Shown: positions 981 to 60,710 of the stretch, piece by piece | Position numbering within the stretch: position 1 is the stretch's first letter | Layout of the letters: each line of letters starts with the position of its first letter | Assembly (NCBI GenBank): GCA_964490935.1 | Contig: CAZBEO010000001.1 | Span: 20,742 to 84,741 of the forward strand | Direction of reading: 5' to 3' | Length of the DNA stretch: 64,000 bases | From: an uncultured Verrucomicrobiota bacterium | GTDB taxonomy: Bacteria; Verrucomicrobiota; Kiritimatiellia; RZYC01 | The notes under the pieces: generated by a model | Database searches by the model: none | Told to the model about the DNA's origin: nothing | What the model saw: only the letters and a program-made list of their open reading frames with translations | Program-made: the position numbers and the translations under genes

Positions 981-2279
981 CTAAATAAGCCCAATCACGT
1001 CTTTAATCGGCATGCAAAGCGCATCGGCTTCCCGTGCGCGTCCATGCAATAAAATGCTTTCCGCCGTTTTCTGCATGGCCGGATAGGCACTGCGTAAAAG
1101 CTGATTGGCATAGATCACCACATGCACGCCATGCCTTTCCAGTTCCTCCTCCGTCACCTGCGAATAGGTGCTTGGCACGGCCACCAGCGGAACACGGCGG
1201 GACAGCTTGGCGTACGCCTCACAAAAGGTGAAAAGTTCATCGGGCGTTTTGGCCTTGCTGTGGATCATGATGCCATCGGCCCCGGCTTCTATATAAGCCT
1301 GCACCCGGCTCAGCGCATCGGCCATCCCCGCACCCGTTATCAGACTCTCGCATCGGGCAATGATCATAAAATCATCAGAAATCTGCGACGCCTTCCCGGC
1401 GCGGATTTTTTCCGACATGATCGCCACGTCGGCCTGCTGCTGATTATTTCCAGCATCCAGCAGGGAATTTTTTTTCAGTCCGACCTTATCCTCAATGATC
1501 ACGGCAGAGATACCGAGCCGCTCGAGCGTACGCACCATGAACACAAAGTGCTCCGAAAGTCCTCCGCTGTCGCCATCATAAATAATGGGCTTCGTGGTGA
1601 CCTCAAGGATGTCATTCACCGTATGCAATCGCGAAGTGAGATCCACGCATTCAATATCCGGCTTCCCCTTCAGCGTGGAATCGGTCAGACTGCTCAGCCA
1701 CATGGCATCGAACTCGATGTTTTGAGGACCTCTCTTTACGCGGCAGTTTTCCACAATCAAACCACTGAGACCGCTGTGCGCTTCCAACGCGCGGATAAGT
1801 GGTTTCACCTTCAACAGGCGACGCAGACGCTGCCGCCGAATGTCCGGCGTGACGCCGACTTCGCGAATCGCCTTGTTAAGCTGCGTGGAAGAAATGCCTG
1901 GGGTATAGGAAGGCTCAATGAGTTCGCCCCCCCATTCGGCCAGCGCGTCGATCACGCGTTGGCGCGTCTCGCGCTGCACGCCCTCGCGCCAGTCATCGCC
2001 ATGCACCACGTAGTCGGGTTTTAATTCGCGCAGATTCGGCACATAATCCAGCGTATGCTGAGGCACCACCCGCACCACTCCCTTCAGACTTTCAACCACG
2101 GCGGCCCGCTGTTCATAGATCATGTATGGAAGGCGCTTATAGCTCGCAATGGCTTCATCGGTCAACACCCCCACCGTCACGTCGCCATATTCCGCCGCCA
2201 CCTTCAATATGTTCAAGTGTCCCGGATGAATAATGTCCGCGCTCATACCCACATATACTGTTTTCATAATGGCTGCCAT
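981..2279 (-). CDS. aepX: bifunctional cytidylyltransferase / phosphoenolpyruvate mutase
   Basis: The N-terminus carries the HxGH nucleotidyltransferase motif ([10 protein letters not shown]). The C-terminal ICL/PEPM domain carries the EDK motif ([13 protein letters not shown]) and GDSGG. Confidence 0.75.
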
Positions 2280-2312: not shown

Positions 2313-3494
2313 CTATGGAAACGTGGTCTCCAACTCGCTGAGCAGTTCAATCAATCCGATCACCCGCACGTTTGGTCTTAGCGTATAGCCGCCTTCAACC
2401 ATTGGACACACCACCCAGACCTGTTCCAAATTCAAACTCTCTTTTGTGGCGTTAAATCCTTTTGACAATTTGGGTGACAAGGAGGCTTTGCATTCAAAGC
2501 CGATCCGTCGCTGTCCCTGCTCCAGGATCAGATCAATTTCTTCGCCGGATGAAGTACGATAAAAGGAAGCCCGCCATCGAGGTAACTTCTGCGTGATTTG
2601 CTCTATACAAAGCCCCTCCCAAGAAGCTCCAAACAGTGGATGCGCAAAGAGGTCATCGTAAGAATGAATTTCCTGCAAGGCATGCAGAATGCCCGTGTCA
2701 CGAATATAGAATTTAGGTGCCTTCACAAGGCGTTTTTTCAGATTCAGCTCAAGGGGGGGCAAAACCCGAATCATGAACGTCTGTTCAAGCAGATCAATGT
2801 ATTTAAACACCGTACTGTGCGACCACCCCAACGATTGCCCGATCTTGGAGGCATTCAGAAGCTGTCCGTGGTAATGCGAGATCATTCGCCAGAACCGGAA
2901 AAGCCTGTTCGCAGAGATGGAAAATCCCAGCTCCGGGATGTCTCGACTCATAAAGGTCTGGATAAAATCATCCACCCATTCCCTGCATAAGCTGTCGCTT
3001 CGGGCCAGATAGGCCAGAGGAAATCCTCCCCTCCACCATAGCTTTTTAAATAGAGCCGGTCCCGGCGTCTCCAGATATACTTCTTCCAGCAAAAAGGGTG
3101 TCAATTCCAGATAATGAATACGGCCTGCAAGAGTTTCCTTTCCTTTCCGAATTAGATCCTGAGAAGCTGAGCCAAGTAGTAGAAAACGCCCTGGTCTTCT
3201 ATCCTGATCAACCAGCGCCCGCATCAACGGAAAGAGTGACGGCAACCGTTGGATTTCGTCGATGCAAACCAACTGGTCGGCACGCTCGCCAAGAAAAAGC
3301 TCCGGCTCTTCCAACCGCCTTAAATCAGAGGGCAATTCCAAGTCTAAAAACAGCAGATCATCCCGATCTTTCAACGTTTGATGCACCAACGTTGACTTGC
3401 CACACTGCCGAGGCCCTAAAACAGCCGTAACAGGATGATTGCTAACTGATTGCGCAAGTATATCAACCATATTCCGATGGTATAATGTTTGCAT
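2313..3494 (-). CDS. AAA+ ATPase with DUF4143 domain (COG1373-like)
   Basis: Walker A motif GPRQCGKSTL with a DUF4143-like C-terminal half. ATG start. Confidence 0.7.
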   Translation of the reverse strand: MQTLYHRNMVDILAQSVSNHPVTAVLGPRQCGKSTLVHQTLKDRDDLLFLDLELPSDLRRLEEPELFLGERADQLVCIDEIQRLPSLFPLMRALVDQDRRPGRFLLLGSASQDLIRKGKETLAGRIHYLELTPFLLEEVYLETPGPALFKKLWWRGGFPLAYLARSDSLCREWVDDFIQTFMSRDIPELGFSISANRLFRFWRMISHYHGQLLNASKIGQSLGWSHSTVFKYIDLLEQTFMIRVLPPLELNLKKRLVKAPKFYIRDTGILHALQEIHSYDDLFAHPLFGASWEGLCIEQITQKLPRWRASFYRTSSGEEIDLILEQGQRRIGFECKASLSPKLSKGFNATKESLNLEQVWVVCPMVEGGYTLRPNVRVIGLIELLSELETTFP

Positions 3495-4659: not shown

Positions 4660-5841
4660 TCATTTAAGCCATTCAATGGGATCTGTTTTAAAGAAAACTT
4701 CAAACGGAATGCCCGACGGACCAACGACGACTGCTTTCGCATCGGGATATTCTCGCCGGAAGGCCGAAAGGCCCTGCTGATACCCCGGCCGTCCACTTTT
4801 TACCTCCAGCGCACAAATGGACTCCCCGTTCGATAGCACGTAATCTACTTCGTGCGGCCCTCTTCGCCAATACGTAACCACGCTGTTTGTACCAACGAGA
4901 TAGTTCAGCAAGTGGGCTCCGACGGCGTTCTCAATAAGGCGTCCGCGCCAGGTGGAATCCTGCATAGCCTTCTCACGGCTTTTCATACACAACCCATTGA
5001 TCAGCGCATTATTCCAGAGTACCAGCTTAGGGCTGCTTCCCCGTTTCTTAACATGCCCTTTCGAAAACAATTCCAACCCGCTGACCAGATACGCCCGATC
5101 AAGCAGCGTCAGGTAATGAGCCAGGGTCGTGGTATTGCCTGCATCATTCAACTGTCCGAGCATTTTATTATAGGAGAATAACTGGGCGGGAAAAGCTGCT
5201 GCCAGCCCGAATAGATTTCGCAGCAGGGCGGGTTTGTTGATCGGCTGCATTTGAAGGACGTCTCTCGAGATGGTTGATTCCACCAAGGCATCTCGAACGT
5301 ATTGCTTCCAATCATCCTCATTGTCGACGAACCGGGCCGCACCCGGATAACCGCCGAAAAAGAACCAATCCTCCAGCGACCAACCGAACGCTTCCTGCGT
5401 TTCCGCCCAATCCCAATGTGAAAATCGGTGAAGAAAAAAACGACCAGCCAAACTTTCCGTCAGCCCTTTTTGCAGCAGGAGCGCCGAGGAGCCCAGCAGC
5501 AGGAGCCGAATGTCGGCCTTGCGGCCATCCCAGAAATACTTAATCGCCTCGCTCCAATTCGGGAGCTTTTGCACCTCATCCAGGATCAGCAGCACGGGGG
5601 AGTTGTTTTTTGCACACTCCATTTCGGCCCGCTGCCATTGCGAGCTCAACCACGAATCGGCATCGGAAACCATGTAATCCGCCGTGGCATAGATAGAAGG
5701 ATAGTCCAGTTCGGCGGCAATCTGGCGGGAGGCAGTGGTCTTCCCCACTTGACGGGGACCTGTAATCACTTGAAAAACCGACGGCGTTTCGACCAGTTTA
5801 CGCACAATCGCCGGCACAGAATGTCTTTTTATTTCATTCAT
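4660..5841 (-). CDS. AAA+ ATPase with DUF4143 domain (paralog of 2313..3494)
   Basis: Walker A motif GPRQVGKTT and a LILDEVQK Walker B-like motif. The ORF-track start at 5877 is a TTG, so the internal ATG at 5841 is preferred. Confidence 0.6.
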   Translation of the reverse strand: MNEIKRHSVPAIVRKLVETPSVFQVITGPRQVGKTTASRQIAAELDYPSIYATADYMVSDADSWLSSQWQRAEMECAKNNSPVLLILDEVQKLPNWSEAIKYFWDGRKADIRLLLLGSSALLLQKGLTESLAGRFFLHRFSHWDWAETQEAFGWSLEDWFFFGGYPGAARFVDNEDDWKQYVRDALVESTISRDVLQMQPINKPALLRNLFGLAAAFPAQLFSYNKMLGQLNDAGNTTTLAHYLTLLDRAYLVSGLELFSKGHVKKRGSSPKLVLWNNALINGLCMKSREKAMQDSTWRGRLIENAVGAHLLNYLVGTNSVVTYWRRGPHEVDYVLSNGESICALEVKSGRPGYQQGLSAFRREYPDAKAVVVGPSGIPFEVFFKTDPIEWLK

Positions 5842-6008
5842 AGAGAAAGAGTAACCAATCATACTCAATGACTGCAAGATTATTGCTCAATGGAGAAGGC
5901 CCCGGCAGGATAAGCAGGAGGAAAATCCGGTCCATCCCCTTCATCCCGTCTAAAATTATTGGTTACGACTATACTGCTCCAGTCTCTAGGCGCACCATGG
6001 GCACCCCC

Positions 6009-6503: not shown

Positions 6504-6856
6504 AGACTTCGTCCCTGTGAAGTCCCGGACGGCGAGGCTTCCCTTGGCTGTTTACGAATAGTTGTGAACCGGATTTCTGACATGAAAACGACACGCCTGT
6601 GCGTTCATTTTGTTTTGAACGTATCATATCCCGCGTCGGGGTCAAGCGGGAAACAAGGCCCATGCGGGGTGGCGGGGAGGGGTATGGATCGCACGGGCGC
6701 TGCAAGCGAATGGCTACTTCAATACAGCATTTCGCAAACTTTCGTTTGCATGCAGCAATCCGTCATCTCATCCCGGAGTCGGCTATACCTGTGATCGTGG
6801 ACTACAGCTTCGAGCAACTATATGCCCAAAAATCGGACGGATTGCTACGGGTTGCT

Positions 6857-7822
6857 TTAGAGTTGGGCGACGCGGGCCTTTTGAATCCCGGTGAGCTGCA
6901 CGAGTATCTGCCGCTTGGAGCGTTCGTTCATGCAGAGAATGCGTTCACCGAGGCGCCCGGTGCTGAGGGCCTTGGCGCGCAGAGAAATCTGCAGGCTGCC
7001 CTGGCCAGCGGTCACCATGATGTAGTCGCCTTTTTTGGCGCACAAGGGGGTCCGCACGTAGTTGCGCAGAATGGGCGTGCCCTGTTTGACGGCGCGGTCC
7101 ATTTCCTGGCCGGTGATGGCTTCCTCCACCGGGATGCGCTTTTCGCCTTTGCGCTCCACCGGCATCCGTTCGCTGCGCAGGTCTTCCGGCTGGAGGAGTT
7201 GCCCGCAATCCAGGGCCCGTCCGGCCACCCAGACCTGCTGCAATTCATATTTTTTCAGTCGGACCGGGACATTGCAAATCGGCACTCCATCCACGGAGAT
7301 ATCGACCAGATAGGTGTCGTACTGATTAAAATTCCGGGCCTTGCGCGAGCGCGTCACCTGGAAAGCGGTTTCGCCGCGCGGTATCCAGATGTTGCGCTGG
7401 AGGGGCGCGAACTCCAGCATGAACTCATCGGAGTTGCCGCTCTTTATTCCGAGATGCTGCTCGACGGCTCCGGTCACTTCGCGGGGGGTGACCCGCCGTT
7501 GGGAACGGCTGACGGTGATCTTAATACTCCCGCTCACGCTGGCCGATTTCATGTCGGGGTATTGCTGAAGAGCGTAGGCCACGGAGGTGAGCGGATAGAC
7601 GGATGCTTCGTTGTCGAGGGGCGCATCGAACACCTTGCGATCGAGCCAACCTTCCGGGATGCCGGTCTGGTCCATCAGCATATCGCGCAGGAGAATGTCG
7701 GGTCCGGTTGAAACCACATCCGATTTAATCATCAGCACCTGGGCGCAGGCGAAGACGGGTACGGCGAGACAGCAAGCAATCAGCAGCAGTCTCCGGGCGT
7801 GGGTGCAGGCGTATTTTTTCAT
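6857..7822 (-). CDS. flgA: flagellar basal-body P-ring formation chaperone FlgA
   Basis: Signal peptide, SAF/FlgA C-terminal domain (GDYIMVTAGQGSLQISLRAKALSTGRLGERI). ATG at 7822 with an AAGGAG RBS. The ORF-track start at 7825 is a GTG. Confidence 0.75.
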   Translation of the reverse strand: MKKYACTHARRLLLIACCLAVPVFACAQVLMIKSDVVSTGPDILLRDMLMDQTGIPEGWLDRKVFDAPLDNEASVYPLTSVAYALQQYPDMKSASVSGSIKITVSRSQRRVTPREVTGAVEQHLGIKSGNSDEFMLEFAPLQRNIWIPRGETAFQVTRSRKARNFNQYDTYLVDISVDGVPICNVPVRLKKYELQQVWVAGRALDCGQLLQPEDLRSERMPVERKGEKRIPVEEAITGQEMDRAVKQGTPILRNYVRTPLCAKKGDYIMVTAGQGSLQISLRAKALSTGRLGERILCMNERSKRQILVQLTGIQKARVAQL

Positions 7823-7846
7823 CACAATGCTCCTTTTAAATGATTC

Positions 7847-8629
7847 CTATCGTCTCAAGGTGTTGGCAATGCCTTCCATTTCATCGGCGGCCTTGATGGT
7901 TTTCGAGTTGGCTTCGTAGGCGCGCTGCGAGAGGATCATGTGCACAAGTTCTTCGGCGGCATTCACGGCGGACGTTTCGGTGTACTTATGCGCTACCGTA
8001 CCCATGCCTTCCTCTCCGGGAATCATGCCGGCCTGCGGGGCACCGCTGGATTCCGATTCCGTAAACAGATTCCGCCCTATGCTGCGGAGCCCTTCGGGAT
8101 TCTGAAAGCGGACAAGCGTGACCTGGGCCAACTGAACCGGGTCGCCGTTGACGATCACGGTAAAGGACCCATCGGGTGCAACCGTGGTTTCGGTGGTTCC
8201 TTCGGGGATGTTGTCGAATCCGGTAACGCGATAGCCATCCACCGTGACGACCTCGCCGGTGGAGGTGCTGCGGAAGTTGCCGTCGCGAGTATAACCGGCG
8301 GTACCATCGGGCAGCGTAACCTCAAAAAACCCTTCGCCTTCGACCGCAAAATCCAGGTCACGTCCCGTTTCTTTGAGCGAGCCCTGCCGGAAGACTTTGG
8401 CGATTTCCGTCACCTTGGTGCCGTGTCCGATCTGTATGCCGTTGGGAATCTGGGCATCCCCGGATTCGGCGCCGGGGGTTAGCAGGGTGGAATAGAGCAT
8501 GTCCCCAAAGGAGATGCGGCTGGGTTTGTAGCCGGTGGTATTGATGTTGGCCAAGTTGTTGGCGATGGTGTCCAACGCCAGTTCCTGTGCCCTCATGCCT
8601 GATACGCCTGCCCATAATGAACGTTCCAT
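7847..8629 (-). CDS. flgG: flagellar distal rod protein FlgG
   Basis: N-terminal ANNLANINTTGYK and C-terminal ELVHMILSQRAYEANSK rod/hook motifs. AAGGAGG RBS. Confidence 0.85.
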   Translation of the reverse strand: MERSLWAGVSGMRAQELALDTIANNLANINTTGYKPSRISFGDMLYSTLLTPGAESGDAQIPNGIQIGHGTKVTEIAKVFRQGSLKETGRDLDFAVEGEGFFEVTLPDGTAGYTRDGNFRSTSTGEVVTVDGYRVTGFDNIPEGTTETTVAPDGSFTVIVNGDPVQLAQVTLVRFQNPEGLRSIGRNLFTESESSGAPQAGMIPGEEGMGTVAHKYTETSAVNAAEELVHMILSQRAYEANSKTIKAADEMEGIANTLRR

Positions 8630-8653
8630 GACTCCTCCTTGTGTAAAAACCGA

Positions 8654-9403
8654 CTAGGCACCCAGGGTGTTGATCATTTTAGTTTGATCCTCATCAAAGG
8701 TCCGTACCATCCGTTGATTGGCCTCAAAGGCCCGCATACAACTGATCATCTCCGCCAGCTCGTCGTAAATGGTCGTATTGCTTGCCTCGAGCGTCTTGTG
8801 CACAATTTCGTATTTATCAACATCGCCCTCACGGGCTGGCATATCTTCGGGCGCGCTGTAGAGTGCCGTTCCGGCCCGATCCAGGCGCTGCAAATCTTCA
8901 AACTGAACCACCTTGAGTGTGCCAAGCAGGTTGTTCTGCGCATCCCGAATGGTTCCGTCCGGCCCGGCGATGAGTTGGGAAAGATTGGCCTCCGGCGGCA
9001 CGACAATATTGCCGTTGGCGCCCTGCACCGGCATGCCGTCCATATTCTGCAGCGTACCATCCGGCCCCATCTTGAAATTCCCGTTTCGAGTATATAAATC
9101 GCGCTTGTCATCCCGTACCACAAAAAAACCGCTTCCCTGCACCGCGAAGTCCAGCGGACGTTCGGTCTGCTTGAGTGGTCCTTCGGTAAAATCAATGAAA
9201 ACCGGATCAAATCGACCTTTTTCGCGCAGGTCTTTGTAGAAATCAACCGACTGATTCAGGAGGGTGTCGAACACCTGGTCGCCCACGGTGAGCTTCTTAA
9301 ATCCAGGCATCGAGCTGTTCGCGATATTCTCGCTTATTGCCTGAAGGCGGTCCTGCTCGCGGCCAAGCATCTGAAATTCTGGACTGTAGAAATCGGCACT
9401 CAT
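8654..9403 (-). CDS. flgF: flagellar proximal rod protein FlgF
   Basis: ISENIANSSMPGFKK and C-terminal MISCMRAFEANQRM motifs. The start is taken at the internal ATG (MSADFYSPEF...), not the long ORF-track extension. No clear SD, so the start is uncertain. Confidence 0.65.
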   Translation of the reverse strand: MSADFYSPEFQMLGREQDRLQAISENIANSSMPGFKKLTVGDQVFDTLLNQSVDFYKDLREKGRFDPVFIDFTEGPLKQTERPLDFAVQGSGFFVVRDDKRDLYTRNGNFKMGPDGTLQNMDGMPVQGANGNIVVPPEANLSQLIAGPDGTIRDAQNNLLGTLKVVQFEDLQRLDRAGTALYSAPEDMPAREGDVDKYEIVHKTLEASNTTIYDELAEMISCMRAFEANQRMVRTFDEDQTKMINTLGA

Positions 9404-9414
9404 GCCGTGGGAAA

Positions 9415-9430
9415 AGCAGGTTGAATGCCA
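9415..9430 (-). promoter_or_regulatory. sigma54 (-24/-12)-like promoter, TGGCATTCAACCTGCT on the minus strand, upstream of flgF
   Basis: GG and GC elements spaced exactly as in TGGCACG-N4-TTGC. A near-identical motif sits divergently upstream of flgH. The -12 element lies only ~12 nt from the proposed flgF ATG. Confidence 0.4.
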
Positions 9431-9475
9431 CGCTTCGACCATTTCTTGCCAATACCTATACCGAACCAACCCACC

Positions 9476-9510
9476 TGCAACCTGCAACCCGCAACCCGGC
9501 ACCTGCACCC
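9476..9510. repeat. five tandem 7-bp units (TGCAACC TGCAACC CGCAACC CGGCACC TGCACCC)
   Basis: Seen directly in the sequence, located between the two divergent sigma54-like promoters. A candidate enhancer/activator-binding tract. Confidence 0.5.
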
Positions 9511-9518
9511 GCCTGATG

Positions 9519-9534
9519 TGGCATTCCTCCTGCT
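9519..9534 (+). promoter_or_regulatory. sigma54 (-24/-12)-like promoter TGGCATTCCTCCTGCT upstream of flgH
   Basis: GG-N10-GC spacing fits the consensus. It lies ~47 nt upstream of the flgH ATG, leaving room for a 5'UTR with the AAGAGG RBS. Confidence 0.45.
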
Positions 9535-9580
9535 ACCCTTATGCCATGAATGTAGAAATAACCCGTGTAAGAGGTGCTTT

Positions 9581-10195
9581 ATGAAGAGGATGAACCCCTT
9601 GATCTATAGCGGAATGCTCTGTTTGATGCTGACCTCATCCTCCTTGGCCGCAAGAAGTTGGAACATGGCGGCTAATTTCTACGGGCACAAGAAAGCCCGC
9701 GAGGTCGGCGACCTGCTGACCGTCCGCATCACGGAAGCCTCGAGTGTAGAAAAAGATGCCTCCCGCAGTGATAAAAAAAGCTACGGTTTGGGCGGATCGG
9801 CCAGTTTCGCTCATCCCACCATAGATAGCCGCGAGCTGGAATGGACCAATGCCACCCTCCCGAAGTTCTCCGTGGCCGCTAACCGCGACTTCTCTGGACA
9901 GGGTGCCGTTTCCGACTCAGACAAGTTTGAAACGTTCATCACCGTGCGCGTCATGGACGTGCTTCCGAACGGCGATTTGCTCATCGAAGGCAAGCGCTCT
10001 CTGATTCTGAAGAACGATACCGTGCAGGTGGTCCTGACCGGCGCCGTGCGCGTGCGGGACATTGACAATCAAAACACCATCGAATCCACGAAGATTGCCG
10101 ATGCCGTCATTCAATATCAAACCAGCGGTTCTCTCGAACGAACAACGAAGAAAGGGCTCCTTCCCCGATTTGTGGATTGGGTGAACCCGTTCTGA
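9581..10195 (+). CDS. flgH: flagellar L-ring protein FlgH
   Basis: Signal peptide and FlgH core (SRSDKKSYGLGGSASF...VRVMDVLPNGDLLIEGKR). The internal ATG with an RBS is used instead of the long ORF-track extension. Confidence 0.8.
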   Translation: MKRMNPLIYSGMLCLMLTSSSLAARSWNMAANFYGHKKAREVGDLLTVRITEASSVEKDASRSDKKSYGLGGSASFAHPTIDSRELEWTNATLPKFSVAANRDFSGQGAVSDSDKFETFITVRVMDVLPNGDLLIEGKRSLILKNDTVQVVLTGAVRVRDIDNQNTIESTKIADAVIQYQTSGSLERTTKKGLLPRFVDWVNPF

Positions 10196-10205
10196 GGACG
10201 ATCAC

Positions 10206-11363
10206 ATGAAAACAAACAAACGACTTTTCTATTTTAAAAACAATGCGGCGCGGCGTCTGATCGCCTGTTTCGCGGCGCTGGCTCTGCTGCCGTTCGGCAC
10301 ACCGACACAGGCCGCCGTCACGGCACGCCTGAAGGACATCGTGCGCATCGAGGGTGTGGATGCGGTGCAGTTGGTCGGCTACGGCATCGTGGTCGGACTC
10401 AGCGGCTCGGGCGACAAGGACCTCCAGCTCACCAAGCAGACCGTGGCCAACCTCCTCGAACAGTTTCGCATCACGATTCCCTCCACCGACATCAAAAGCA
10501 AGAATACGGCAGCGGTCATGGTCACCGCCAGCGCACCCGCCTTTCACCGCGAGGGCGACCGCGTGAACATTCAGGTCTCCACCATGGGCGACGCTTCCTC
10601 GCTCGAGGGCGGCATTCTCCTGATGACGCCGATGCTCGCTCCCGACGGCGTACTCTATGCCCTTTCCCAGGGCGCGCTGACGGTCTCGGGCTATTCCTCT
10701 GGCGTAGGCGGACGTGGAGGGCAGTCGGAGCAGGTGAATTATACCTCCGTCGGCTACATCCCGGGCGGCGCGGTGCTTCGCTACAGCCAGACCGAATCCT
10801 TTATTCAGGAAGGCATCATCCGCCTGGCCCTCAATCATGCCGATTTCACGACAGCCAACCGCCTGGCCGATGCGATCAACAAACTCTACGAAGGCTCGGC
10901 GGCGGTACGCGATGCCTCGTCGGTCTTTGTCCGTGTGCCTTCCGACATTATCGACATCGGGCAGACGGCCCGCTTCATGGCCAGCCTGGAATCGCTCACG
11001 ATCGAGCCGGATGCACAGTCCAAGGTGATCATCAACGAGCGCAGCGGCACCATTGTGATGGGCGGCAACGTACACATTGCCGAGGCCGTTGTGGCACACG
11101 GCAACCTGACTGTGCGCATTACCTCGAACCTAGCTGGCTACATGCCCGAACCCTTTACCACGGCGGAGGCCCTGGTGCTCGAAGAAACGCGCACGCAGGT
11201 ACACGAGGAGAATGCCAAGGTCATGCTGCTGCCCGGCACCACCACCGTGCAGGAACTAGCCGCCCTCCTCAATGAAGTGGGCACCACACCACGCGACATC
11301 ATCTCCATTCTCGAGGCCCTGCAGAATCTCGGCGCACTGCAAATGGAAGTGCAAACCATGTAA
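10206..11363 (+). CDS. flgI: flagellar P-ring protein FlgI
   Basis: LKDIVRIEGVDAVQLVGYGIVVGLSGSGD...; the protein is FlgI-family throughout, with a signal peptide. Confidence 0.85.
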   Translation: MKTNKRLFYFKNNAARRLIACFAALALLPFGTPTQAAVTARLKDIVRIEGVDAVQLVGYGIVVGLSGSGDKDLQLTKQTVANLLEQFRITIPSTDIKSKNTAAVMVTASAPAFHREGDRVNIQVSTMGDASSLEGGILLMTPMLAPDGVLYALSQGALTVSGYSSGVGGRGGQSEQVNYTSVGYIPGGAVLRYSQTESFIQEGIIRLALNHADFTTANRLADAINKLYEGSAAVRDASSVFVRVPSDIIDIGQTARFMASLESLTIEPDAQSKVIINERSGTIVMGGNVHIAEAVVAHGNLTVRITSNLAGYMPEPFTTAEALVLEETRTQVHEENAKVMLLPGTTTVQELAALLNEVGTTPRDIISILEALQNLGALQMEVQTM

Positions 11364-11377
11364 CTGGAGAAACCGTC

Positions 11378-11695
11378 ATGATAAATCCCATCTCATCCAA
11401 CGATGCACTTCCCGCCACCCTCGCCATGCAGGGGCGGCGTGCCGGCGAAAAACCCGATCCACTGCGCGAAGCCTGCGAAGATGCCGAAGGCCTTTTTGCA
11501 AGCCTTCTGCTGAAGGAAGGATTGAAGCCCGTGCTGGATGAAGCCGGCGAAGGAGAATCGCACTCGGGTGCGCTGTTGGAATTTTCAATCGAGGAAATGG
11601 CCCAGGAAATGGGCCGTCAAGGGCTGCTCGGAGTGGCCGATCAGTTTTATGAGCAATTGGCGGGGCAATCCAATCCGTTCGGAGGAGCACAATGA
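11378..11695 (+). CDS. flgJ: flagellar rod-binding protein (FlgJ N-terminal domain only)
   Basis: 105 aa with a rod-binding-domain pattern (ACEDAEGLFASLLLKEGLKP). No C-terminal glucosaminidase domain. GGAGA RBS. Confidence 0.55.
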   Translation: MINPISSNDALPATLAMQGRRAGEKPDPLREACEDAEGLFASLLLKEGLKPVLDEAGEGESHSGALLEFSIEEMAQEMGRQGLLGVADQFYEQLAGQSNPFGGAQ

Positions 11696-12096
11696 ACCAC
11701 AACGCGGTATCCGCAGAACTCAAAGACTGCCTGAAGCTGGTGGAGTCCGAAGCCTCCAATCTCCAGAAGGCCCTGCTCTCGCGCGACAGCGCCCTCATTC
11801 TGGACGCCGTCACACGGCAGCGCATCGCCCTGGATCAAATTCAATCGTACATCAGCGAGAACCAGGCCGACATGCGCTTCACGCCTACAGAAAAGAAGCG
11901 CGTCCTTCAGCCGATGATGCACCGCATACGCCGCGTGCTGACCATGAACGAACGCATGGCGCGAACACTCCTCGGCGTGATCGATAAAACGCTCTCGAAT
12001 CTGGCCATCGGAACCAAAAATACAGCCAATGTCTACAATGGATACGGGCGCATCGCCGGCATGGCCGCGCCTATTCTGATCAACGCACAGGGGTAA
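11692..12096 (+). CDS. putative flagellar export chaperone, FlgN-like (immediately upstream of flgK)
   Basis: 134 aa helical protein. The call rests on its position (flgJ - this gene - flgK) and a FlgN-like heptad pattern. The stop overlaps the start of the previous gene. Confidence 0.35.
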   Translation: MNHNAVSAELKDCLKLVESEASNLQKALLSRDSALILDAVTRQRIALDQIQSYISENQADMRFTPTEKKRVLQPMMHRIRRVLTMNERMARTLLGVIDKTLSNLAIGTKNTANVYNGYGRIAGMAAPILINAQG

Positions 12097-12100
12097 CGTC

Positions 12101-13537
12101 ATGTCTTCACTAACCGATATCACCACCGTGGCCCGAAGCGGCATCCTGGCGCAGCAGGAAAAGCTGAACGTCATCGCCCACAACATCACCAACGTCAACA
12201 CCAAGGGCTACCATCGGCAAACAGCCGTTCTCGCCACCAACCCGGCGAACATGCCCAACATCAGCACCACCATACCCTATTCGCAGGGCACCGGCGTCAC
12301 CGTGCAGGATGTCATGCGCGAGTACGACCTGCTCCGCGAACGGGCCCTGCTTGACGAACGCTCCGGTGCCGCCAAAGATGAATTTCTGGCCAATCAGCTC
12401 CCCGATCTCGAAGCCATCCTCCTGACCGATACCGAAAACGGACTCGCCCAGACCCTCACCCAGTTCTGGACCGCCTGGCAGAACGTGGCCACCTATCCCG
12501 ACAACATCACCATGCGCAACGTGGCACTCGAAAAAGGCGCGCAGCTCGCAGCCGTACTGAGCAAAACGACCGGCTCCCTCCAGAATTACCGCGACGCCAT
12601 CTCCGCCGGAGTTTCCCCAAACATCACCGGTTCCGTGGCCGACGAGGTGAACAGCCTGAACACCATGACCGCCGAACTCCAGAACCTGAACCGGAAAATC
12701 ACCCTCTATCAGGGCACGCGTGTTTCCACCGCCGACCTCGAAGACCGCCGCGATCTGCTCGTGGCCGACCTCGCCAAGCAGGCGGAAGTCTCCGTCGATG
12801 CCGACTACAACATCAGCATCGACGGCCAACTCCTGCTCAGCGGCGATGGCCTTACCCGCAATGAACTGAATATTACCGCCGCCGATCCGCTGACCTTTGA
12901 TGTCAACGGAAACCCCGTAAACATCGAACAGGGCGTCATCGGAGGCTGGAACGAACTGACCGCCTACATTGACTCACTCGGCGACAATCTCGATGCCCTC
13001 GCCGCCGAAGTGATCGCGCAAGTCAACACCCTGCACACCTCCGGCTATGATCTCGACGGTAACCCCGGTCTGGTTTTTTTCACCGGCACCTCCGCCTCCG
13101 ACATTTCCGTCAATGCCGCCCTCTATAATGCGGGCAACCCCCTGCTCAACAATCCGCGACTCATTGCCGCCGCGCAAACCCTCTACGATCCCGGCGGGCC
13201 CAATGAAGGGGCCAACACCGGCGACGGCGCTATCGCCCTGGCCATTGCCGATCTCTCCGGCGCCGCCCTCGCCGCCCTCGGAAACCAGTCGTTCAATCAG
13301 TATTACACGGAGCTTGCCACCAACCTCGGAACGCAGATTGGAACCTTTCAGTCGCTGGCCGAGAGTGGCGCGGCCACTATTTCCGCCCTTGAAAACGCCA
13401 TTCAATCCGAATCAGGCGTCAGCCTCGATGAAGAACTGATTCACATGATCACCGCGCAGCGCGCCTACCAAGCGGCATCCAAACTGCTCTCTGAAACCAA
13501 CACCATGTTCGATGTGCTGATGTCCATCACCCGATAA
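12101..13537 (+). CDS. flgK: flagellar hook-associated protein 1 FlgK
   Basis: N-terminal ISGILAQQEKLNVIAHNITNVNTKGY and C-terminal LIHMITAQRAYQAASKLL motifs. Confidence 0.8.
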   Translation: MSSLTDITTVARSGILAQQEKLNVIAHNITNVNTKGYHRQTAVLATNPANMPNISTTIPYSQGTGVTVQDVMREYDLLRERALLDERSGAAKDEFLANQLPDLEAILLTDTENGLAQTLTQFWTAWQNVATYPDNITMRNVALEKGAQLAAVLSKTTGSLQNYRDAISAGVSPNITGSVADEVNSLNTMTAELQNLNRKITLYQGTRVSTADLEDRRDLLVADLAKQAEVSVDADYNISIDGQLLLSGDGLTRNELNITAADPLTFDVNGNPVNIEQGVIGGWNELTAYIDSLGDNLDALAAEVIAQVNTLHTSGYDLDGNPGLVFFTGTSASDISVNAALYNAGNPLLNNPRLIAAAQTLYDPGGPNEGANTGDGAIALAIADLSGAALAALGNQSFNQYYTELATNLGTQIGTFQSLAESGAATISALENAIQSESGVSLDEELIHMITAQRAYQAASKLLSETNTMFDVLMSITR

Positions 13538-13554
13538 ATAACGGAGACCCTGCC

Positions 13555-13698
13555 ATGAAAAAGAAAAACACGCCAAGCCGCAACGCCCCTGCGGGAGAGT
13601 CCTTTAACCAGAACCTACAGGTCCTGACTCAGCAGCTCGGGCTCTACGCCATGCTCCTGCGCAACGCCTCCTCTAGGCAGCGCATAGTCAATTCTTAA
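13555..13698 (+). CDS. small hypothetical protein (47 aa) between flgK and the glycosylation-like genes
   Basis: ATG preceded by an ACGGAGA RBS; the same RBS is used by the next gene. No recognisable family. Not in the ORF track because it is under 60 aa. Confidence 0.3.
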   Translation: MKKKNTPSRNAPAGESFNQNLQVLTQQLGLYAMLLRNASSRQRIVNS

Positions 13699-13717
13699 AC
13701 GATACGGAGTACCCGGC

Positions 13718-15379
13718 ATGAAACAAGCCAGGCGAATCACCCTTCCAGCGCTTGACGACGCCTTGGAACACGCGAGACCCCGCAGCATCGTGCTGGTGGG
13801 CGCGGGCGGACCTCTGCCAGAACTGATTCGACTCCTGCGCGAACAGGAAGGGCTGGTCTGCCAGGGCATACTCGATCCCGACCCCGCGCTCAAAGGCGAA
13901 TTCATCGAAGACCTGGTCGTGCTCGGTTGGCTCGGAGATATTCCGCGCCACGCCTCCTGCGCCCTGATCGGACTCCCAAAACGCGCGAACGGCTTTGACC
14001 GTAAATCCGTTTATCATATTCTGCTCCGGCAGGGTCTTTGCCTACCGGTGCTTCAGGCGCGTTCGTCCGCCTCGGCACCGGATGTCACTTTGCCTGCAGG
14101 CACGGTCGTGCTCGAAGGGGCCGTGGTGGAACCGGGGGCCTCGCTGGGCGTCAACTGTCTGCTCGAGCCAGGCGCAAAGGTCACCCGCTGCGCTGCATTG
14201 GGCGAACATACCGTCCTGCACCGAAACACCACGTGGCGCAAAACCGGGCCAGCCCCCTCTGCGCAACCCGAGCCGCGCCAACAACTCGAAGCCGTCCTCG
14301 CCCAGGAACACGAACCCTTGCAGCGTATTATCGAGCGCATCAACTGGGCCAACATGGAAATCATCCTCGTGGTGAATCCGCAGGGACGCCTCATCGGAAC
14401 CATCACCGATGGCGACATACGCCGAGGGCTCCTCGCCGGGGTGGATATGAACCTGCCCGCCGGCCTCATCATGAACCGCACCCCGACCACCGCGCCGCAG
14501 GGCCTTTCCCGCAAAGAAATGCTGCACCTCATGCGCGAAAAATCCATTCGCCACCTGCCCGTGGTCGATGCCGAAGGCCGTCCGGTCCTGCTCGAACGCA
14601 TGGAACATATTTTGGATGCCATCAGCGGGCACGACGCTATCGTCATGGCGGGCGGCCTCGGCTCACGCCTGCGCCCGCTCACCAACGATACCCCCAAGCC
14701 GCTTCTGCCCGTCGGCAACCGCCCCATTCTGGACCACATTCTCGGCGGGTTGAAATCGGCAGGCATCGAGGAGGTGGTCCTCTCCCTGAACTACCGGGGC
14801 GACCAGATTCGCCACCACGTGGGCGACGGCGAACAGCACGGCATGCGCGTAAATTACGTCACCGAGAAAGAACGCCTCGGCACCGCTGGCGCGCTCTCGC
14901 TGCTAAATCCGCGTCCCACGCGCCCATTCCTGGTCATGAACGGCGATCTGCTCACGAATCTGAACTACGCCAAGCTGCTGCGCTTCCAGCAGGAAAACGA
15001 TTATGCGCTGGTTATGTGCGTGCGCCAGTACAAGATTCAGGTGCCCTACGGCGTGGTACAGATCACGCCCGAGGGACAGATCAACGCCCTGCAGGAAAAA
15101 CCCGTGCATGAACATTTCATCAATGCCGGAATCTACGTCATGAAGCCGCAGTGTCTCGATTACATTCCGCATCGGGCTTATTTTGACATGACCGATCTGA
15201 CCAATCTGCTCATCGAACGCGGCGAGAGCGTCGGCGCCTTTCCGCTGGTGGAATACTGGCGCGACATCGGACGTCCCGAAGACCTTCACGCCGCCACGGA
15301 GGAACACGCTCGCCACATTACTGCGGCAGGGGCTGCACGGCCCTGTACCTCACGCGTCCCGATGGAGGCCCTGGCATGA
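13718..15379 (+). CDS. tri-domain sugar-nucleotide enzyme: NeuD/PglD-like acetyltransferase + CBS pair + sugar-phosphate nucleotidyltransferase (PtmE-like)
   Basis: N-terminal Rossmann/hexapeptide region, central CBS (GTITDGDIRRG...IRHLPVVD), and a C-terminal segment AIVMAGGLGSRLRPLT...KPLLPVGN. Confidence 0.65.
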   Translation: MKQARRITLPALDDALEHARPRSIVLVGAGGPLPELIRLLREQEGLVCQGILDPDPALKGEFIEDLVVLGWLGDIPRHASCALIGLPKRANGFDRKSVYHILLRQGLCLPVLQARSSASAPDVTLPAGTVVLEGAVVEPGASLGVNCLLEPGAKVTRCAALGEHTVLHRNTTWRKTGPAPSAQPEPRQQLEAVLAQEHEPLQRIIERINWANMEIILVVNPQGRLIGTITDGDIRRGLLAGVDMNLPAGLIMNRTPTTAPQGLSRKEMLHLMREKSIRHLPVVDAEGRPVLLERMEHILDAISGHDAIVMAGGLGSRLRPLTNDTPKPLLPVGNRPILDHILGGLKSAGIEEVVLSLNYRGDQIRHHVGDGEQHGMRVNYVTEKERLGTAGALSLLNPRPTRPFLVMNGDLLTNLNYAKLLRFQQENDYALVMCVRQYKIQVPYGVVQITPEGQINALQEKPVHEHFINAGIYVMKPQCLDYIPHRAYFDMTDLTNLLIERGESVGAFPLVEYWRDIGRPEDLHAATEEHARHITAAGAARPCTSRVPMEALA

Positions 15380-16362
15380 ATGGAAAAACGGCCGTAGTCA
15401 CCGGCGCCTGCGGATTTATCGGCAGTCATCTCGCCGAGGAACTCGTTCGGCGCGGCGCACACGTCAAGGCGCTCGCCCTCTATGATGCACGCGGCGCACG
15501 CGGCTGGCTCGACCAGATTGATCCCGCCCTCGCACGCGAAATGGAACTCATTTCCGGCGACGTCCGCGACGCCGAGCAGATGCGCCGCCTCATCCGAAAA
15601 GATGATGTCGTCTTTCATCTCGCGGCCCTCATCGGCATACCCTATTCATACATCGCCCCGCGTTCCTACGTGCAGACCAATATCGAAGGCACCCTCAACA
15701 TCCTCGAGGCCGCACGCGAAGCCGGCGCGGCACGCGTCATGAACATGTCCACCAGCGAAGTCTACGGTTCCGCCCTGCGCGTGCCTATCGACGAAGATCA
15801 CCCCCTACAAGGACAAAGCCCCTATTCCGCCTCCAAAATCGGCGCGGAAAAAATGACGGAAAGCTATGTCAAATCCTTTTCGCTGCCTGCCGTCACCGTA
15901 CGTGCCTTCAACACCTTCGGCCCGCGCCAATCGCCCCGTGCCGTCATCCCCACCATCCTTATGCAACTGCTCGCTGGCGAAAAGGAACTCCACCTCGGAA
16001 ACCTGCACAGTACGCGCGATTTCAACTTTGTGGCCGACACCGTCGAGGGCCTAATCCGCCTCGCTTCCTGCGAAGCCGCCATTGGGCGGGCCGTCAACAT
16101 CGGCACCGGTGCCGAGATAACCATCGCCCAGCTCGCCGAAGCCGCCCAGCGCGCCGTCGGGCACACCGCTTCAATCATCGAAAAACAGGACCGCATGCGC
16201 CCCGAACAAAGCGAAGTACAACGTCTTTGCGCCGACGCCTCCCTGCTCCACTCGCTCACCGGCTGGACCCCACCCCCGCGCCTCGAGGAAGGCCTTCGCT
16301 TAACCGCCACATGGATGAAAACGGAACTGAACCGCTATGAGCCTCAACGATACTATGTTTAA
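15376..16362 (+). CDS. NAD-dependent epimerase/dehydratase (nucleotide-sugar 4,6-dehydratase-like)
   Basis: TGACGFIGSHL Rossmann fold, catalytic YSASK, ATGA start overlap with the upstream gene. Confidence 0.75.
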   Translation: MNGKTAVVTGACGFIGSHLAEELVRRGAHVKALALYDARGARGWLDQIDPALAREMELISGDVRDAEQMRRLIRKDDVVFHLAALIGIPYSYIAPRSYVQTNIEGTLNILEAAREAGAARVMNMSTSEVYGSALRVPIDEDHPLQGQSPYSASKIGAEKMTESYVKSFSLPAVTVRAFNTFGPRQSPRAVIPTILMQLLAGEKELHLGNLHSTRDFNFVADTVEGLIRLASCEAAIGRAVNIGTGAEITIAQLAEAAQRAVGHTASIIEKQDRMRPEQSEVQRLCADASLLHSLTGWTPPPRLEEGLRLTATWMKTELNRYEPQRYYV

Positions 16363-17077
16363 ACAGCCGCTGGCCCTCGCCCCGCGTGCCGTACTTTTTG
16401 ACCTGGATGACACCCTCTATCCAGAACGCCAATATGTGTTCAGCGGCTTTCAGGCCGTGGCCGCCTATATCCAGCGGGTGTACGGACTGCTTGTCTTCAA
16501 CGATCTGGTCAAGACCTACCTCACGGGCGAGCGGTCCAACGTCTTCGGAGCCACCCTCGAAAAACACTTCGGAAACGTCGAAGAGGCTGTCCTTAAAAAA
16601 ACACTCCACGTCTTCTGGACCCACACCCCGAAAATCGAACTCTATGAAGATGCCCGCATCTGCATGGCCCTGCTCTTCTCGCGCGGCATCAAGGTCGGCG
16701 TCATCACCACTGGACGCGGCGGCATCCAACAGAAAAAAATCGCCGCCCTCGAACTCGAACCCCTCCTCGACGGCATTATCTACACCGATGATCTTCTGGG
16801 CGACTCCGAACCCGGCCAGCCCAATGCCGACGCCTTTCACATCCTCGCCCTACAGCTCGAAGTCGAACTCAGCGACCTCTGCTTTGTGGGCGACAATCCG
16901 CTCACCGACTTCGCGATCCCCCGGCGCCTCGGCGTCAAAACCGTCCGCATACGCCGTCCCGGCGGTGAATTTTCCGAAGCCCAACCCCCCGCTCTCGGCT
17001 TTCAGGCCGACCGCGTCATCGAATCCCTCACCGATCTCCCCCGCCTCTTTCTCCCGGCCAACTCTATTCGACCCTGA
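16337..17077 (+). CDS. HAD-superfamily hydrolase (putative sugar-phosphate phosphatase)
   Basis: Motif I LFDLDDTLY and a C-terminal VGDNPLTD motif. Overlaps the upstream gene by 26 nt. Confidence 0.65.
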   Translation: MSLNDTMFKQPLALAPRAVLFDLDDTLYPERQYVFSGFQAVAAYIQRVYGLLVFNDLVKTYLTGERSNVFGATLEKHFGNVEEAVLKKTLHVFWTHTPKIELYEDARICMALLFSRGIKVGVITTGRGGIQQKKIAALELEPLLDGIIYTDDLLGDSEPGQPNADAFHILALQLEVELSDLCFVGDNPLTDFAIPRRLGVKTVRIRRPGGEFSEAQPPALGFQADRVIESLTDLPRLFLPANSIRP

Positions 17078-17211
17078 ACAGCGCCCCCCGGCAGCCCGCT
17101 CGCTTAGCCCCTCCTTCCCCTATCCAAAAAAGCGGCATATATGTATTGTTATTGACAGAATTAGGCGCTAGACACGGACACAAATCGAAACGGGGTTCCG
17201 GAGGGTCGCCC

Positions 17212-17619
17212 ATGTCCGCAGAGCTGAACATACTGATCGTTGATGATGAATTCAGCGCCAGGAAACTGCTGGAAATCATGCTCAAGCCGTACGGTCGCTG
17301 CGTGATGGCTGTGAACGGAAACGAGGCCATCAAAGCCGTGCAGCAGGCCCTTTCCAAGGATGACTACTTCGACCTCATCTGCCTCGACATCATGATGCCC
17401 GAGATGGATGGGCAGGAGGCCCTCAAAATCATTCGCCAGCTCGAAAACAAGCGTAGCCTTTGGCCTGGAAACGGCGCCAAGGTCATCATGACCACCGCCC
17501 TTCAAGATGCCTCGAATGTCATGACCGCCTTCATGGAGCAATGCGAATCCTACCTCGTCAAGCCCATCGAAAAAGAAGCCCTGCTCACCGAAATGCGCAA
17601 GCTGACGCTTATCCCCTGA
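17212..17619 (+). CDS. single-domain CheY-like response regulator
   Basis: ILIVDDE, the ICLDIMMPEMDG phospho-acceptor region, and a conserved K (YLVKP). Internal ATG used. Confidence 0.7.
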   Translation: MSAELNILIVDDEFSARKLLEIMLKPYGRCVMAVNGNEAIKAVQQALSKDDYFDLICLDIMMPEMDGQEALKIIRQLENKRSLWPGNGAKVIMTTALQDASNVMTAFMEQCESYLVKPIEKEALLTEMRKLTLIP

Positions 17620-17635
17620 CCGGTCGGAGCAAGCC

Positions 17636-18829
17636 GTGAAAGCCCTTCTCATCAAATGGCGGGACATGAACCCGCAGCTCAAACTCTTTCTTGCCGCCGT
17701 ACTGCTTTTTGGCGTCGCCGGCGGCATCTTCGACATCAGCTTCAACAACTACCTCAGCGACACCTTTCAAATCAGTGCCAAAACACGCGGCTGGCTCGAA
17801 TTTCCCCGCGAAACGCCTGGCTTTCTTACGGCTATCTTTGTCGGCCTCCTCTTCTTCATCCCGGAGACACGCATTGCCTCTCTGGCCGCCCTGCTGGCTG
17901 GCCTTTCCCTCATCAGCATAGCCGTCTGGGGACAGCAGTGGATACCCATGCTCATTCTCATGACGCTGTTCAGCACCGGACTGCACCTCTTTCTCCCCGT
18001 ACGCAACTCCGTGAGCATGCTCCTGGCAAAAGACGGCCGACACGGCCGGCGCATGGGGCAGGTCGGCGCTGTCCAGTTCGCCTCCGGCATCCTCGGCAGC
18101 GCCCTCATTTGGTTCGTCTTCCGAAAGACCTCCGGAAGCTACCCGCTGCTCTTCGTACTCGGCGGCATCCTAGCCCTGGTCGCCGCGGCACTCTTCTTCG
18201 CCATGCACCTGCCCGCTGCGCACCTTCAGCGCCCCAAATGGGTCTGGAACCGGCGATACTGGCTCTACTACGTTCTCGCCATCCTCTTCGGCGGGCGCAA
18301 ACAAATCTTTCTCACCTTCGGCCCCTGGGTGCTCATCCGCGAATACCACCAATCCGCCGCCGTCTTCGCCCAGCTCTGGGTGGTCGGAGCCATCGCCGGC
18401 CTCTTCTTTCAGCCCCTCCTCGGCAACCTCATCGACCGCTGGGGCGAGCGGAAAGTCCTCATCATCGACTCCATCCTCGTCACCACCGTATGTCTCGGCT
18501 ACGCCTGCTCACACTGGATTCCGAACCCCCGCCTCGTGCTACCCGTCCTCTTCGCCTGTTACTTGGGCGATCAGCTCCTCTTCGGCGTCAACATCGCCCG
18601 CATCACCTACATTTCCAAAATTGCCCTCAACCCAACCCATATCGCCCCGACCCTTTCACTGGGCAGCAGCCTGGACCACGCCGTATCCATGACCGTCCCC
18701 ATTCTGGGCGGCATTCTTTGGACCACCTACGGCTACCAAGCCGTCTTCCTGGCCGCCGCCGTACTCGCCCTGCTCATGCTCTTCTTCAGCGCCCTGATCC
18801 GCCTCCCCGCCCGCTGCGTGAAGCATTAG
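17636..18829 (+). CDS. MFS transporter
   Basis: ~12 predicted TM segments. GTG start with a GGAG RBS; an alternative ATG lies at 17666. Confidence 0.6.
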   Translation: MKALLIKWRDMNPQLKLFLAAVLLFGVAGGIFDISFNNYLSDTFQISAKTRGWLEFPRETPGFLTAIFVGLLFFIPETRIASLAALLAGLSLISIAVWGQQWIPMLILMTLFSTGLHLFLPVRNSVSMLLAKDGRHGRRMGQVGAVQFASGILGSALIWFVFRKTSGSYPLLFVLGGILALVAAALFFAMHLPAAHLQRPKWVWNRRYWLYYVLAILFGGRKQIFLTFGPWVLIREYHQSAAVFAQLWVVGAIAGLFFQPLLGNLIDRWGERKVLIIDSILVTTVCLGYACSHWIPNPRLVLPVLFACYLGDQLLFGVNIARITYISKIALNPTHIAPTLSLGSSLDHAVSMTVPILGGILWTTYGYQAVFLAAAVLALLMLFFSALIRLPARCVKH

Positions 18830-60637: not shown

Positions 60638-60710
60638 AGTCATTTCGTCTCGAATGGGGGGCAATATGACGCCCCTTCTTCTGCTTTGCAACCCCTTTTT
60701 TAACCTTTCT

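Follow-up and report, generated by a model that had tools for sequence, protein, structure and literature searches.

How does a bacterium of the phylum Kiritimatiellota transcribe two flagellar operons that face away from each other across only 177 bp, and does the sequence between them control both? The locus lies in a 64 kb stretch of contig CAZBEO010000001.1, from a metagenome-assembled Kiritimatiellae genome (hereafter the window; positions are numbered on the forward strand), in which the rod operon flgF-flgG-flgA runs on the minus strand and an operon beginning with flgH-flgI runs on the plus strand. An earlier sequence-only reading had named these genes, an assignment upheld by Pfam, and had proposed that a pair of divergent sigma-54-type promoters flanks a tandem heptamer repeat in the flgF-flgH intergenic region. 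The explanation that best accounts for the data, to which we give a probability of roughly 0.75, is that the region contains two independent sigma-54 core promoters placed back to back, that flgF has a leaderless mRNA, that the juxtaposition of the promoters is recent, and that the spacer between them is specific to this species.

According to this explanation, the minus-strand promoter at 9415-9430 would drive flgF-flgG-flgA, with transcription of flgF starting at A9403 or within 1-2 nt of it. The flgF gene would be translated from a leaderless mRNA without a Shine-Dalgarno (SD) site, and flgG and flgA would use SD sites of their own. The plus-strand promoter at 9519-9534 would drive flgH, flgI, two small open reading frames (ORFs) and flgK, and its transcript would carry a leader of ordinary kind, ~35 nt long, that includes a strong SD site. 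The activating ATPase would act from solution, or from sites located downstream or inside genes. The features of the locus are as follows.

6857-7825, minus strand: flgA (P-ring assembly chaperone; Pfam ChapFlgA), the last gene of the conserved promoter-to-stop module
7847-8629, minus strand: flgG (distal rod protein; Pfam), with its own SD site AAGGAGG
8654-9403, minus strand: flgF (proximal rod protein, 249 aa; Pfam LlgE_F_G_D1 and Flg_bbr_C; homologues)
9401-9403, minus strand: flgF start codon ATG and predicted transcription start (A9403 or 1-2 nt upstream; conservation and spacing)
9415-9430, minus strand: putative -24/-12 (sigma-54-type) promoter of the flgF operon, TGGCATTCAACCTGCT (direct reading, script check, motif count)
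9434-9515: species-specific spacer between the promoters, 82 bp, with no similarity to relatives or to the rest of the window
9476-9510, plus strand: degenerate 5 x 7-bp tandem repeat, TGCAACC-like (script check, Tandem Repeats Finder (TRF), shuffles)
9519-9534, plus strand: putative -24/-12 (sigma-54-type) promoter of the flgH operon, TGGCATTCCTCCTGCT (direct reading, script check, motif count)
9546-9580, plus strand: predicted flgH 5' leader, ~35 nt, with the SD site AGAGGTG at 9570-9576
9581-10195, plus strand: flgH (L-ring protein; Pfam FlgH, 2.3e-43)
10206-11363, plus strand: flgI (P-ring protein; Pfam FlgI, 3.5e-110)
11378-13537, plus strand: remainder of the operon, comprising a 105-aa ORF, a 134-aa ORF (at the FlgN position by synteny) and flgK (Pfam)
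12101-13537, plus strand: flgK (Pfam)

The window was compared with loci from relatives, labelled L001-L022, most of which were fetched individually; scans of genome contigs and of metagenome contigs by FlgF alignment returned two loci each. Two other metagenome assemblies of the same species (L001 and L002) contain an identical locus, and the closest FlgF from elsewhere, at 96% identity, belongs to a contig labelled as a Kiritimatiellae bacterium metagenome-assembled genome (MAG). The gene order of the flgH operon is the same in L012, L014, L016, L018, L020 and L022, and the L022 ORF equivalent in position to the 134-aa ORF of the window gave a weak match to FlgN.

Two outward-facing motifs with -24/-12 spacing

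Direct reading and a script check agree with the sequence-only reading on both motifs, their coordinates, strands and outward orientation, as well as on the exact GG-N10-GC spacing that it had ascribed to them. The GG and GC doublets fall at G9429/G9428 and G9417/C9416 on the minus strand for flgF, and at G9520/G9521 and G9532/C9533 on the plus strand for flgH. The exact pattern TGGCAT-N5-CTGCT has two matches in 64 kb against 0.05 expected, a count reached by none of 100 shuffles, and both copies lie within the flgF-flgH intergenic region, pointing outwards. A scan of 9300-9700 with a simple consensus found no sigma-70-like promoter, and the sole match of an Rfam scan was a tRNA. The single terminator-like match was a weak one, at 9419-9440 (7 pairs, 3 of them GC), overlapping the flgF -24 region.

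Several further sites resemble these motifs. A GG-N10-GC match on the opposite strand, TGGCATAAGGGTAGCA (9531-9546, minus strand), overlaps the flgH -12 region and start site; a similar sequence is present in L012 and missing from L014 and L020, and the match probably arises as a side effect of the palindromic TGGCA/TGCCA context. The site CGGCATCCAAACTGCT (13473-13488, plus strand) falls in the final 65 nt of flgK. Some 67 nt further on come a conserved 47-aa ORF (13555-13698) and genes for a nucleoside triphosphate (NTP)-transferase and an epimerase. Similar sites occur in L012, L014 and L020 and are absent from L016 and L018. We rejected it as a third promoter, as it encodes the conserved FlgK C-terminus (AASKLL), which leaves promoter function inseparable from coding constraint. 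The best match in the window to the canonical sigma-54 consensus, with one mismatch, is TGGCACCGCTTATGCT (48790-48805, plus strand). It stands 28 nt before the gene for a family-9 glycosyltransferase (48833-49831), after which comes a radical-SAM gene, and may serve as a sigma-54 promoter outside the flagellar system.

Conservation of both promoters in relatives

The proposal that the motifs are sigma-54-type promoters draws strong support from the relatives, where each keeps a fixed position before the orthologous gene while flanks and neighbouring genes differ. For flgF, the comparison covered L003-L008, L010 and L011, whose FlgF proteins are 96, 80, 83, 77, 64, 64, 61 and 55% identical to that of the window, and the more distant L022. 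TGGCA[TC]-N5-CTGCT stands at a fixed place before flgF in nine further lineages, with CGTGCT as its second part in L022. The gap between the GC and the flgF ATG is 12 nt, or 13 nt in L011 and L022. Across the eight lineages that align without gaps (the window, L003-L008 and L010), the only invariant columns in the 60 nt before the ATG are TGGCA, CTGCT(T) and GGC. The gene upstream of flgF varies: it may be a 97-aa ORF with a terminator (in several lineages), a DUF1846 gene or a gene for a large CarboxypepD_reg protein, and it is flgH in this species only. In L004, L005 and L008, about 25-45 nt separate the flgF motif from the hairpin and T-run that terminate the upstream gene, so the flgF operon needs its own promoter within that interval.

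The flgH promoter was compared in five further lineages (L012, L014, L016, L018 and L020; FlgH 86-62% identical). All five carry [TC]GGCAT-N5-[CG]TGCT before flgH, followed after 30-47 nt by the ATG, with a GAGGT-type SD site between. Upstream of -24 the sequences are unrelated between lineages, and the neighbour may be tRNA-Met or a gene for a major facilitator superfamily (MFS) transporter, an HD protein or an aminotransferase.

When the strict pattern TGGCA[CT]N5[CT]TGCT was counted in 233 kb of non-redundant sequence (the window and the loci), 18 sites were found against 0.72 expected. Every one of the 18 lies upstream of, and is directed towards, a gene of a flagellar cluster: flgF nine times, flgH four times, flagellin genes three times and a 149-aa ORF adjoining the flagellin genes twice. 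A somewhat looser version precedes fliE in L007.

The flagellin genes with such motifs belong to a large flagellar island that lies upstream of flgF in L003 (1-10000), L004 and L022 and is absent from the window. The island contains csrA, two or three tandem flagellin genes, an MptE/Maf-like gene, fliS, a CheY-like gene and, just before flgF, the 97-aa ORF. Each of its flagellin genes stands behind a sigma-54-type motif with a leader of 62-65 nt. Flagellins under sigma-54 instead of sigma-28 motifs would make an unusual hierarchy. L022 also has a different operon layout, with flgF-flgG-flgA-flgH-flgI-...-flgK contiguous at 7405-13982, a gap of 21 nt with an SD site between flgA and flgH, and no separate flgH promoter seen in that locus; such a single operon may represent the ancestral condition.

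The flgF start codon and a predicted leaderless mRNA

The distance from the minus-strand -12 element to the flgF ATG, put at ~12 nt by the sequence-only reading, is indeed 12 nt (9404-9415, between C9416 of the GC and A9403 of the ATG). The stretch GGCATGAGT is invariant in the eight gap-free lineages and the same in L011; L022 has AGCATGAGT. ATGAGT is conserved at the flgF start, and the ATG is present in 10 of 10 lineages.

Which codon begins flgF had to be settled, since gene callers give FlgF lengths of 238, 262, 267 or 268 aa in different assemblies. The comparison places the start at ATG 9403 because L010 has an in-frame TGA 6 nt upstream of this ATG, because the codons that follow it change mainly in the third position, and because alignment puts the N-termini of FlgF proteins from other phyla at the Met of 9403. 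The variable sites in codons 1-11 number 4, 2 and 7 at the first, second and third codon positions, and they include the synonymous changes TTC/TTT, CCA/CCG, GAA/GAG and GCG/GCT/GCA, with amino acids such as F, Y, S and P kept. L005 has no in-frame start upstream of the ATG. An N-terminal extension of FlgF through the motif (W-H...C) was rejected, as the 'residues' encoded by the motif's own spacer are not conserved. A start at Met12 (ATG 9370) was rejected in turn, as it lacks an SD site and codons 1-11 evolve as coding sequence. Of the two ways out that had been offered for the short distance, a leaderless flgF is thus supported, and a start further downstream is not.

All other flagellar genes in the window are preceded at 6-10 nt by an SD site of the GGAG/GAGG type. 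The flgF gene has none, and only cttttcccacggc stands upstream of its start. Sigma-54 promoters start transcription ~11-13 nt after the GC. In Campylobacter jejuni, transcription starts 8-13 nt downstream of the sigma-54 motif GGaa-N6-tTGCTt (PMC3847290). With a gap of 12-13 nt from GC to ATG, the first nucleotide of the flgF mRNA is therefore expected to be the A of the AUG or to lie 1-2 nt upstream, and we predict that the mRNA of the flgF operon is leaderless. The promoters of flgF, flgH and the flagellin genes in this clade have a pyrimidine-purine step at the 12th and 13th nt after the GC, with conserved sequence behind it (ATGAG, RTGAA, GCCCTGAA); this step gives slight backing to the predicted start position. 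The AUG at the predicted 5' end fits what is known of leaderless mRNAs, on which start codons other than AUG work inefficiently (PMC3616915).

On the flgH side, too, an ATG (9546) follows the GC at a spacing of exactly 12 nt, just as at flgF. It opens a 12-codon ORF, MNVEITRVRGAL (9546-9584, plus strand), the TGA of which overlaps the flgH ATG (ATGA). L012, L014, L019 and L020 have GTG at the corresponding position and the same length of 12 codons; the peptide is not conserved. It could act as an upstream ORF, leaderless and coupled to flgH, or reflect no more than start-site context.

A recent juxtaposition around a species-specific spacer

The 82 bp between the promoters (9434-9515) are identical in L001 and L002, and similarity to other species stops at their edges. 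BLASTN similarity begins at 9430-9433 on the flgF side (L003, L004, L005, L007, L008 and L011) and at 9516-9518 on the flgH side (L012 and L020), so that both boundaries lie 0-3 nt upstream of TGGCA. L003, at 89% nucleotide identity, shares a block with the promoter's -27 position exactly at one end (9433) and the flgA stop codon at the other (6858). In L012, a tRNA-Met orthologue and its flank (89% identical; 1-120 of that locus) lie immediately before the flgH promoter. The counterpart in the window is found at 60562-60638 on the minus strand, 51 kb from the flgH promoter, and its displacement marks, on our reading of the alignments, the rearrangement that brought flgH beside flgF. As the relatives' two operons are placed elsewhere and homology starts at about -27, the comparison indicates that the back-to-back arrangement is a recent rearrangement, specific to this species, and the spacer is probably its junction.

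The heptamer tract lies wholly inside this spacer. Its presence at 9476-9510, as first read, was confirmed by a script check and by TRF, which reports 9473-9507 with a period of 7, 5.0 copies, 78% matches and a score of 42. The units read TGCAACC TGCAACC CGCAACC CGGCACC TGCACCC. The tract is the only array in the window with a period of 5-9 and at least 4 copies, where 0.1 are expected per shuffled window, and it is a real but degenerate tandem repeat. The three assemblies of this species agree in copy number. The units repeat directly, without dyad symmetry, and the only inverted repeat of the region is the promoter pair itself. The tract is absent from all relatives compared, and the TGCACC/TGCAACC words upstream of flgH in L012 have no detectable alignment to it. 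It probably arose by replication slippage, as filler at the rearrangement junction, and the comparison indicates that it is not a conserved enhancer.

Short direct repeats near sigma-54 promoters occur in other lineages too: TTCCAATGGTTGGAACTT is present twice before the flgF promoter of L010 (~640-690) and GTCACTTAATTTC twice before the flgH promoter of L016 (~6745-6790). Both are lineage-specific, and none of these repeats, the heptamers of the window included, is common to different lineages.

Sigma-54 and its activator

A complete RpoN (Sigma54_AID, CBD and DBD) is encoded in L022 at 16854-18350, ~3 kb beyond the flagellar cluster and flgK, in a locus that has the same flgF promoter-ATG architecture as the window. 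Close homologues of this RpoN are annotated in Kiritimatiellae MAGs, in Pontiella agarivorans and in Pontiellaceae. Gene content thus indicates that sigma-54 is available in the clade, and sigma-54 dependence is predicted for the genome studied here.

The nature of the activator can be approached through what lies upstream of the promoters. Neither promoter has any conserved sequence upstream of -27, and the space is often taken by a terminator or a tRNA gene, from which we infer that activation by the ATPase probably dispenses with an enhancer lying close upstream. The rearrangement, which would have kept the core promoters only, acts like a natural deletion analysis, and the breaks in homology at -27 argue in the same direction. 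There are precedents for such activation: FlgR in Campylobacterota works without an upstream enhancer, and some activators in Vibrio and Pseudomonas bind downstream.

Points against the explanation and alternative readings

A number of observations weigh against two sigma-54 promoters with a leaderless flgF. The generic consensus TGGCAC-N5-TTGCW, at up to two mismatches, is not enriched in the window (33 matches against 34.9 expected). Each promoter differs from it at two positions (T for C at -22 and C for T at -15), so a match to the extended consensus counts for little by itself, and, as this consensus does not discriminate, what counts statistically within the one window is the shared pattern and where it lies. 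A signature search of the window and 22 loci found no gene for rpoN or an enhancer-binding protein, and L022 is the one locus in which rpoN was seen; GAFTGA or Sigma54_activat signatures were likewise absent from the window and loci. Initiation at least 2 nt further upstream would give flgF a very short leader instead of none. No published case of a sigma-54 promoter with a leaderless flagellar mRNA was found in the literature searched; genome-wide papers on transcription start sites mention leaderless and sigma-54 terms without describing the pairing. Finally, cultured Kiritimatiellales are non-motile, Pontiella nevertheless having a full flagellar gene set (PMC10880615).

Against this background we considered four other accounts of the region. 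The heptamer tract had been put forward as a possible site for an enhancer-binding protein, and a shared enhancer for an activator of the FlbD/FleQ/NtrC type might drive both promoters. The array is non-random, its position from -73 to -107 relative to the predicted flgF start falls within the usual enhancer distance of about 70-150 bp, and TGCACC-like words in the heptamers may resemble NtrC half-sites. Relative to the predicted flgH start, however, the tract covers -36 to -70, too near for looping, and 7-bp direct repeats without dyad symmetry would set successive units on different sides of the helix. It is confined to the species-specific 82 bp and missing from all relatives although the promoters are conserved there, and in those relatives the space upstream of -24 is filled by terminators or a tRNA gene. 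We regard the shared enhancer as unlikely. A quite unlikely account, a little below it in our estimation, leaves the flgF-proximal motif as a regulatory or poised site that binds sigma-54 holoenzyme, with flgF transcribed from an unrecognised upstream promoter through a normal leader that lacks an SD site. Intragenic and non-productive sigma-54 sites are described for Escherichia coli (PMC4591121). The gap in the searched literature on leaderless sigma-54 transcripts would fit this account, and promoter types of the Planctomycetes-Verrucomicrobia-Chlamydiae (PVC) bacteria are poorly known; the sigma-70 scan relied on a simple consensus. Yet nothing else is conserved upstream of flgF in 10 lineages, several of which have a terminator 25-45 nt before the motif, and the translocated module, whose homology starts at -27, carries the motif as its sole upstream sequence.

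The two remaining accounts concern the reading frame and the symmetry of the region. Conventional translation of flgF, either from Met12 behind a 33-nt leader or from ATG 9442 or GTG 9508 upstream, the latter pair placing the motif in coding sequence, could appeal to the open frame that extends in the window up to 9508 and to the gene callers, which chose Met12 (the 238-aa version) and longer versions in different assemblies. Against it speak the synonymous third-position changes in codons 1-11, the missing SD site before Met12, the L010 stop codon, the lack of an upstream start in L005, the unconserved spacer 'codons' inside the motif and the position of Met1 in FlgF of other phyla, and conventional translation is very improbable on these grounds. 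The idea that the two 16-mers are arms of a single inverted-repeat element, whether an operator for a regulator that binds as a dimer or a small mobile element's terminal repeats, starts from an imperfect inverted repeat of 35 nt (9397-9431 and 9518-9552, 71% complementary). In all relatives, by contrast, the motifs are found one at a time, each at a set distance from the gene it belongs to. A promoter and start-site context common to both (C-R-T-G-A at the 12th-16th nt after the GC) accounts for the extended similarity; L012 also shows this context, for flgH alone. With each arm standing alone in relatives, the operator or mobile-element reading was rejected, and we give it next to no weight.

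Comparison with known systems

Two independent sigma-54 core promoters would place this locus among well-studied flagellar hierarchies, with differences from each. In Caulobacter crescentus, class III/IV flagellar promoters use sigma-54 and FlbD with ftr enhancers and IHF, and include the divergent flaN/flbG pair. The likeness lies in rod, ring and hook-associated genes behind -24/-12 promoters and in a divergent sigma-54 pair within one short intergenic region; the motif reported for Caulobacter RpoN is GGCNC-N4-CTTGC (PMC4287350). Here, by contrast, no conserved ftr-like enhancer was found and no FlbD homologue identified in the window or loci, the pairing appears recent, and the flgF promoter abuts the start codon. 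The Caulobacter-type hierarchy invoked in the sequence-only reading therefore holds as a functional analogy and not beyond.

The FlgS-FlgR-sigma-54 regulon of Campylobacter jejuni and Helicobacter pylori covers rod and hook genes. It resembles the present case in the use of sigma-54 for middle flagellar genes, and its enhancer-free activator fits the unconserved sequence upstream of -27. The locus described here differs in belonging to another phylum (Kiritimatiellota, within PVC), and the relatives' flagellin genes also carry the sigma-54 motif. Vibrio cholerae and Pseudomonas aeruginosa have class III flgFGHIJ operons under FlrC/FleR with sigma-54. In both these and the present case (here by prediction), flgF, flgG, flgH and flgI come under sigma-54. 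The genes flgF-J form one operon with a normal leader there, whereas here there are two operons and flgA follows flgG. L022 is nearer to the one-operon layout, with flgF-G-A-H-I contiguous behind a single flgF promoter.

Among leaderless mRNAs in general, the 171 leaderless start sites of Sinorhizobium meliloti all have AUG (PMC3616915). The flgF operon is alike in having AUG at its predicted 5' end, no SD site and an ATG that is invariant across lineages. It differs in that the leaderless start would be tied to a -24/-12 promoter and conserved in a clade, whereas the Sinorhizobium study names no sigma-54 link (PMC3616915).

Other genes near the locus

A fusion of CTP-transferase and phosphoenolpyruvate (PEP)-mutase and a thiamine pyrophosphate (TPP)-dependent decarboxylase-like gene form a phosphonate biosynthesis signature in the window (981-2279, minus strand, and upstream) and in L001 (271-2699). 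These genes lie a few kb from the flagellar genes, and nucleotide-sugar genes follow flgK (13718-17171), which suggests surface or flagellin modification with glycan or phosphonate. Paralogous AAA_14/DUF4143 ATPase genes (2313-3494 and 4660-5877, both on the minus strand) adjoin the flgA end of the operon, and L007 has a similar gene after fliE. Elsewhere in the window, a 135-bp tandem repeat (60920-61398; 3.6 copies, 74% matches, TRF score 460) lies inside a 949-aa ORF (60711-63560, minus strand).

Implications

In Proteobacteria, it is textbook knowledge that sigma-54 controls flagellar rod and ring genes. To our knowledge, nothing has been established experimentally about sigma-54 control of flagellar genes in Kiritimatiellota, and a literature search combining this phylum with sigma-54 found no phylum-specific data. 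A sigma-54 flagellar promoter pair as such is ordinary; the leaderless architecture and the promoter-to-stop module are moderately interesting. The combination predicted here, in which a leaderless start codon is joined to a -24/-12 promoter and kept over deep divergence, is one that we did not find described.

We give even odds to the wider proposal that, throughout a whole clade of Kiritimatiellota, sigma-54 holoenzyme would transcribe the rod operon as a conserved leaderless mRNA whose first nucleotide is the A of the flgF ATG, that the promoter would need nothing upstream of about -27 and hence no enhancer, and that the operon would have moved around these genomes as a self-contained module from promoter to stop. 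The analysis also corrects the start of flgF, which gene callers had annotated in four different versions. As well as describing one locus, the comparison yields a promoter consensus for the clade, rTGGCAT-N4-cCTGCTt, which is usable to predict the flagellar regulon in uncultured genomes.

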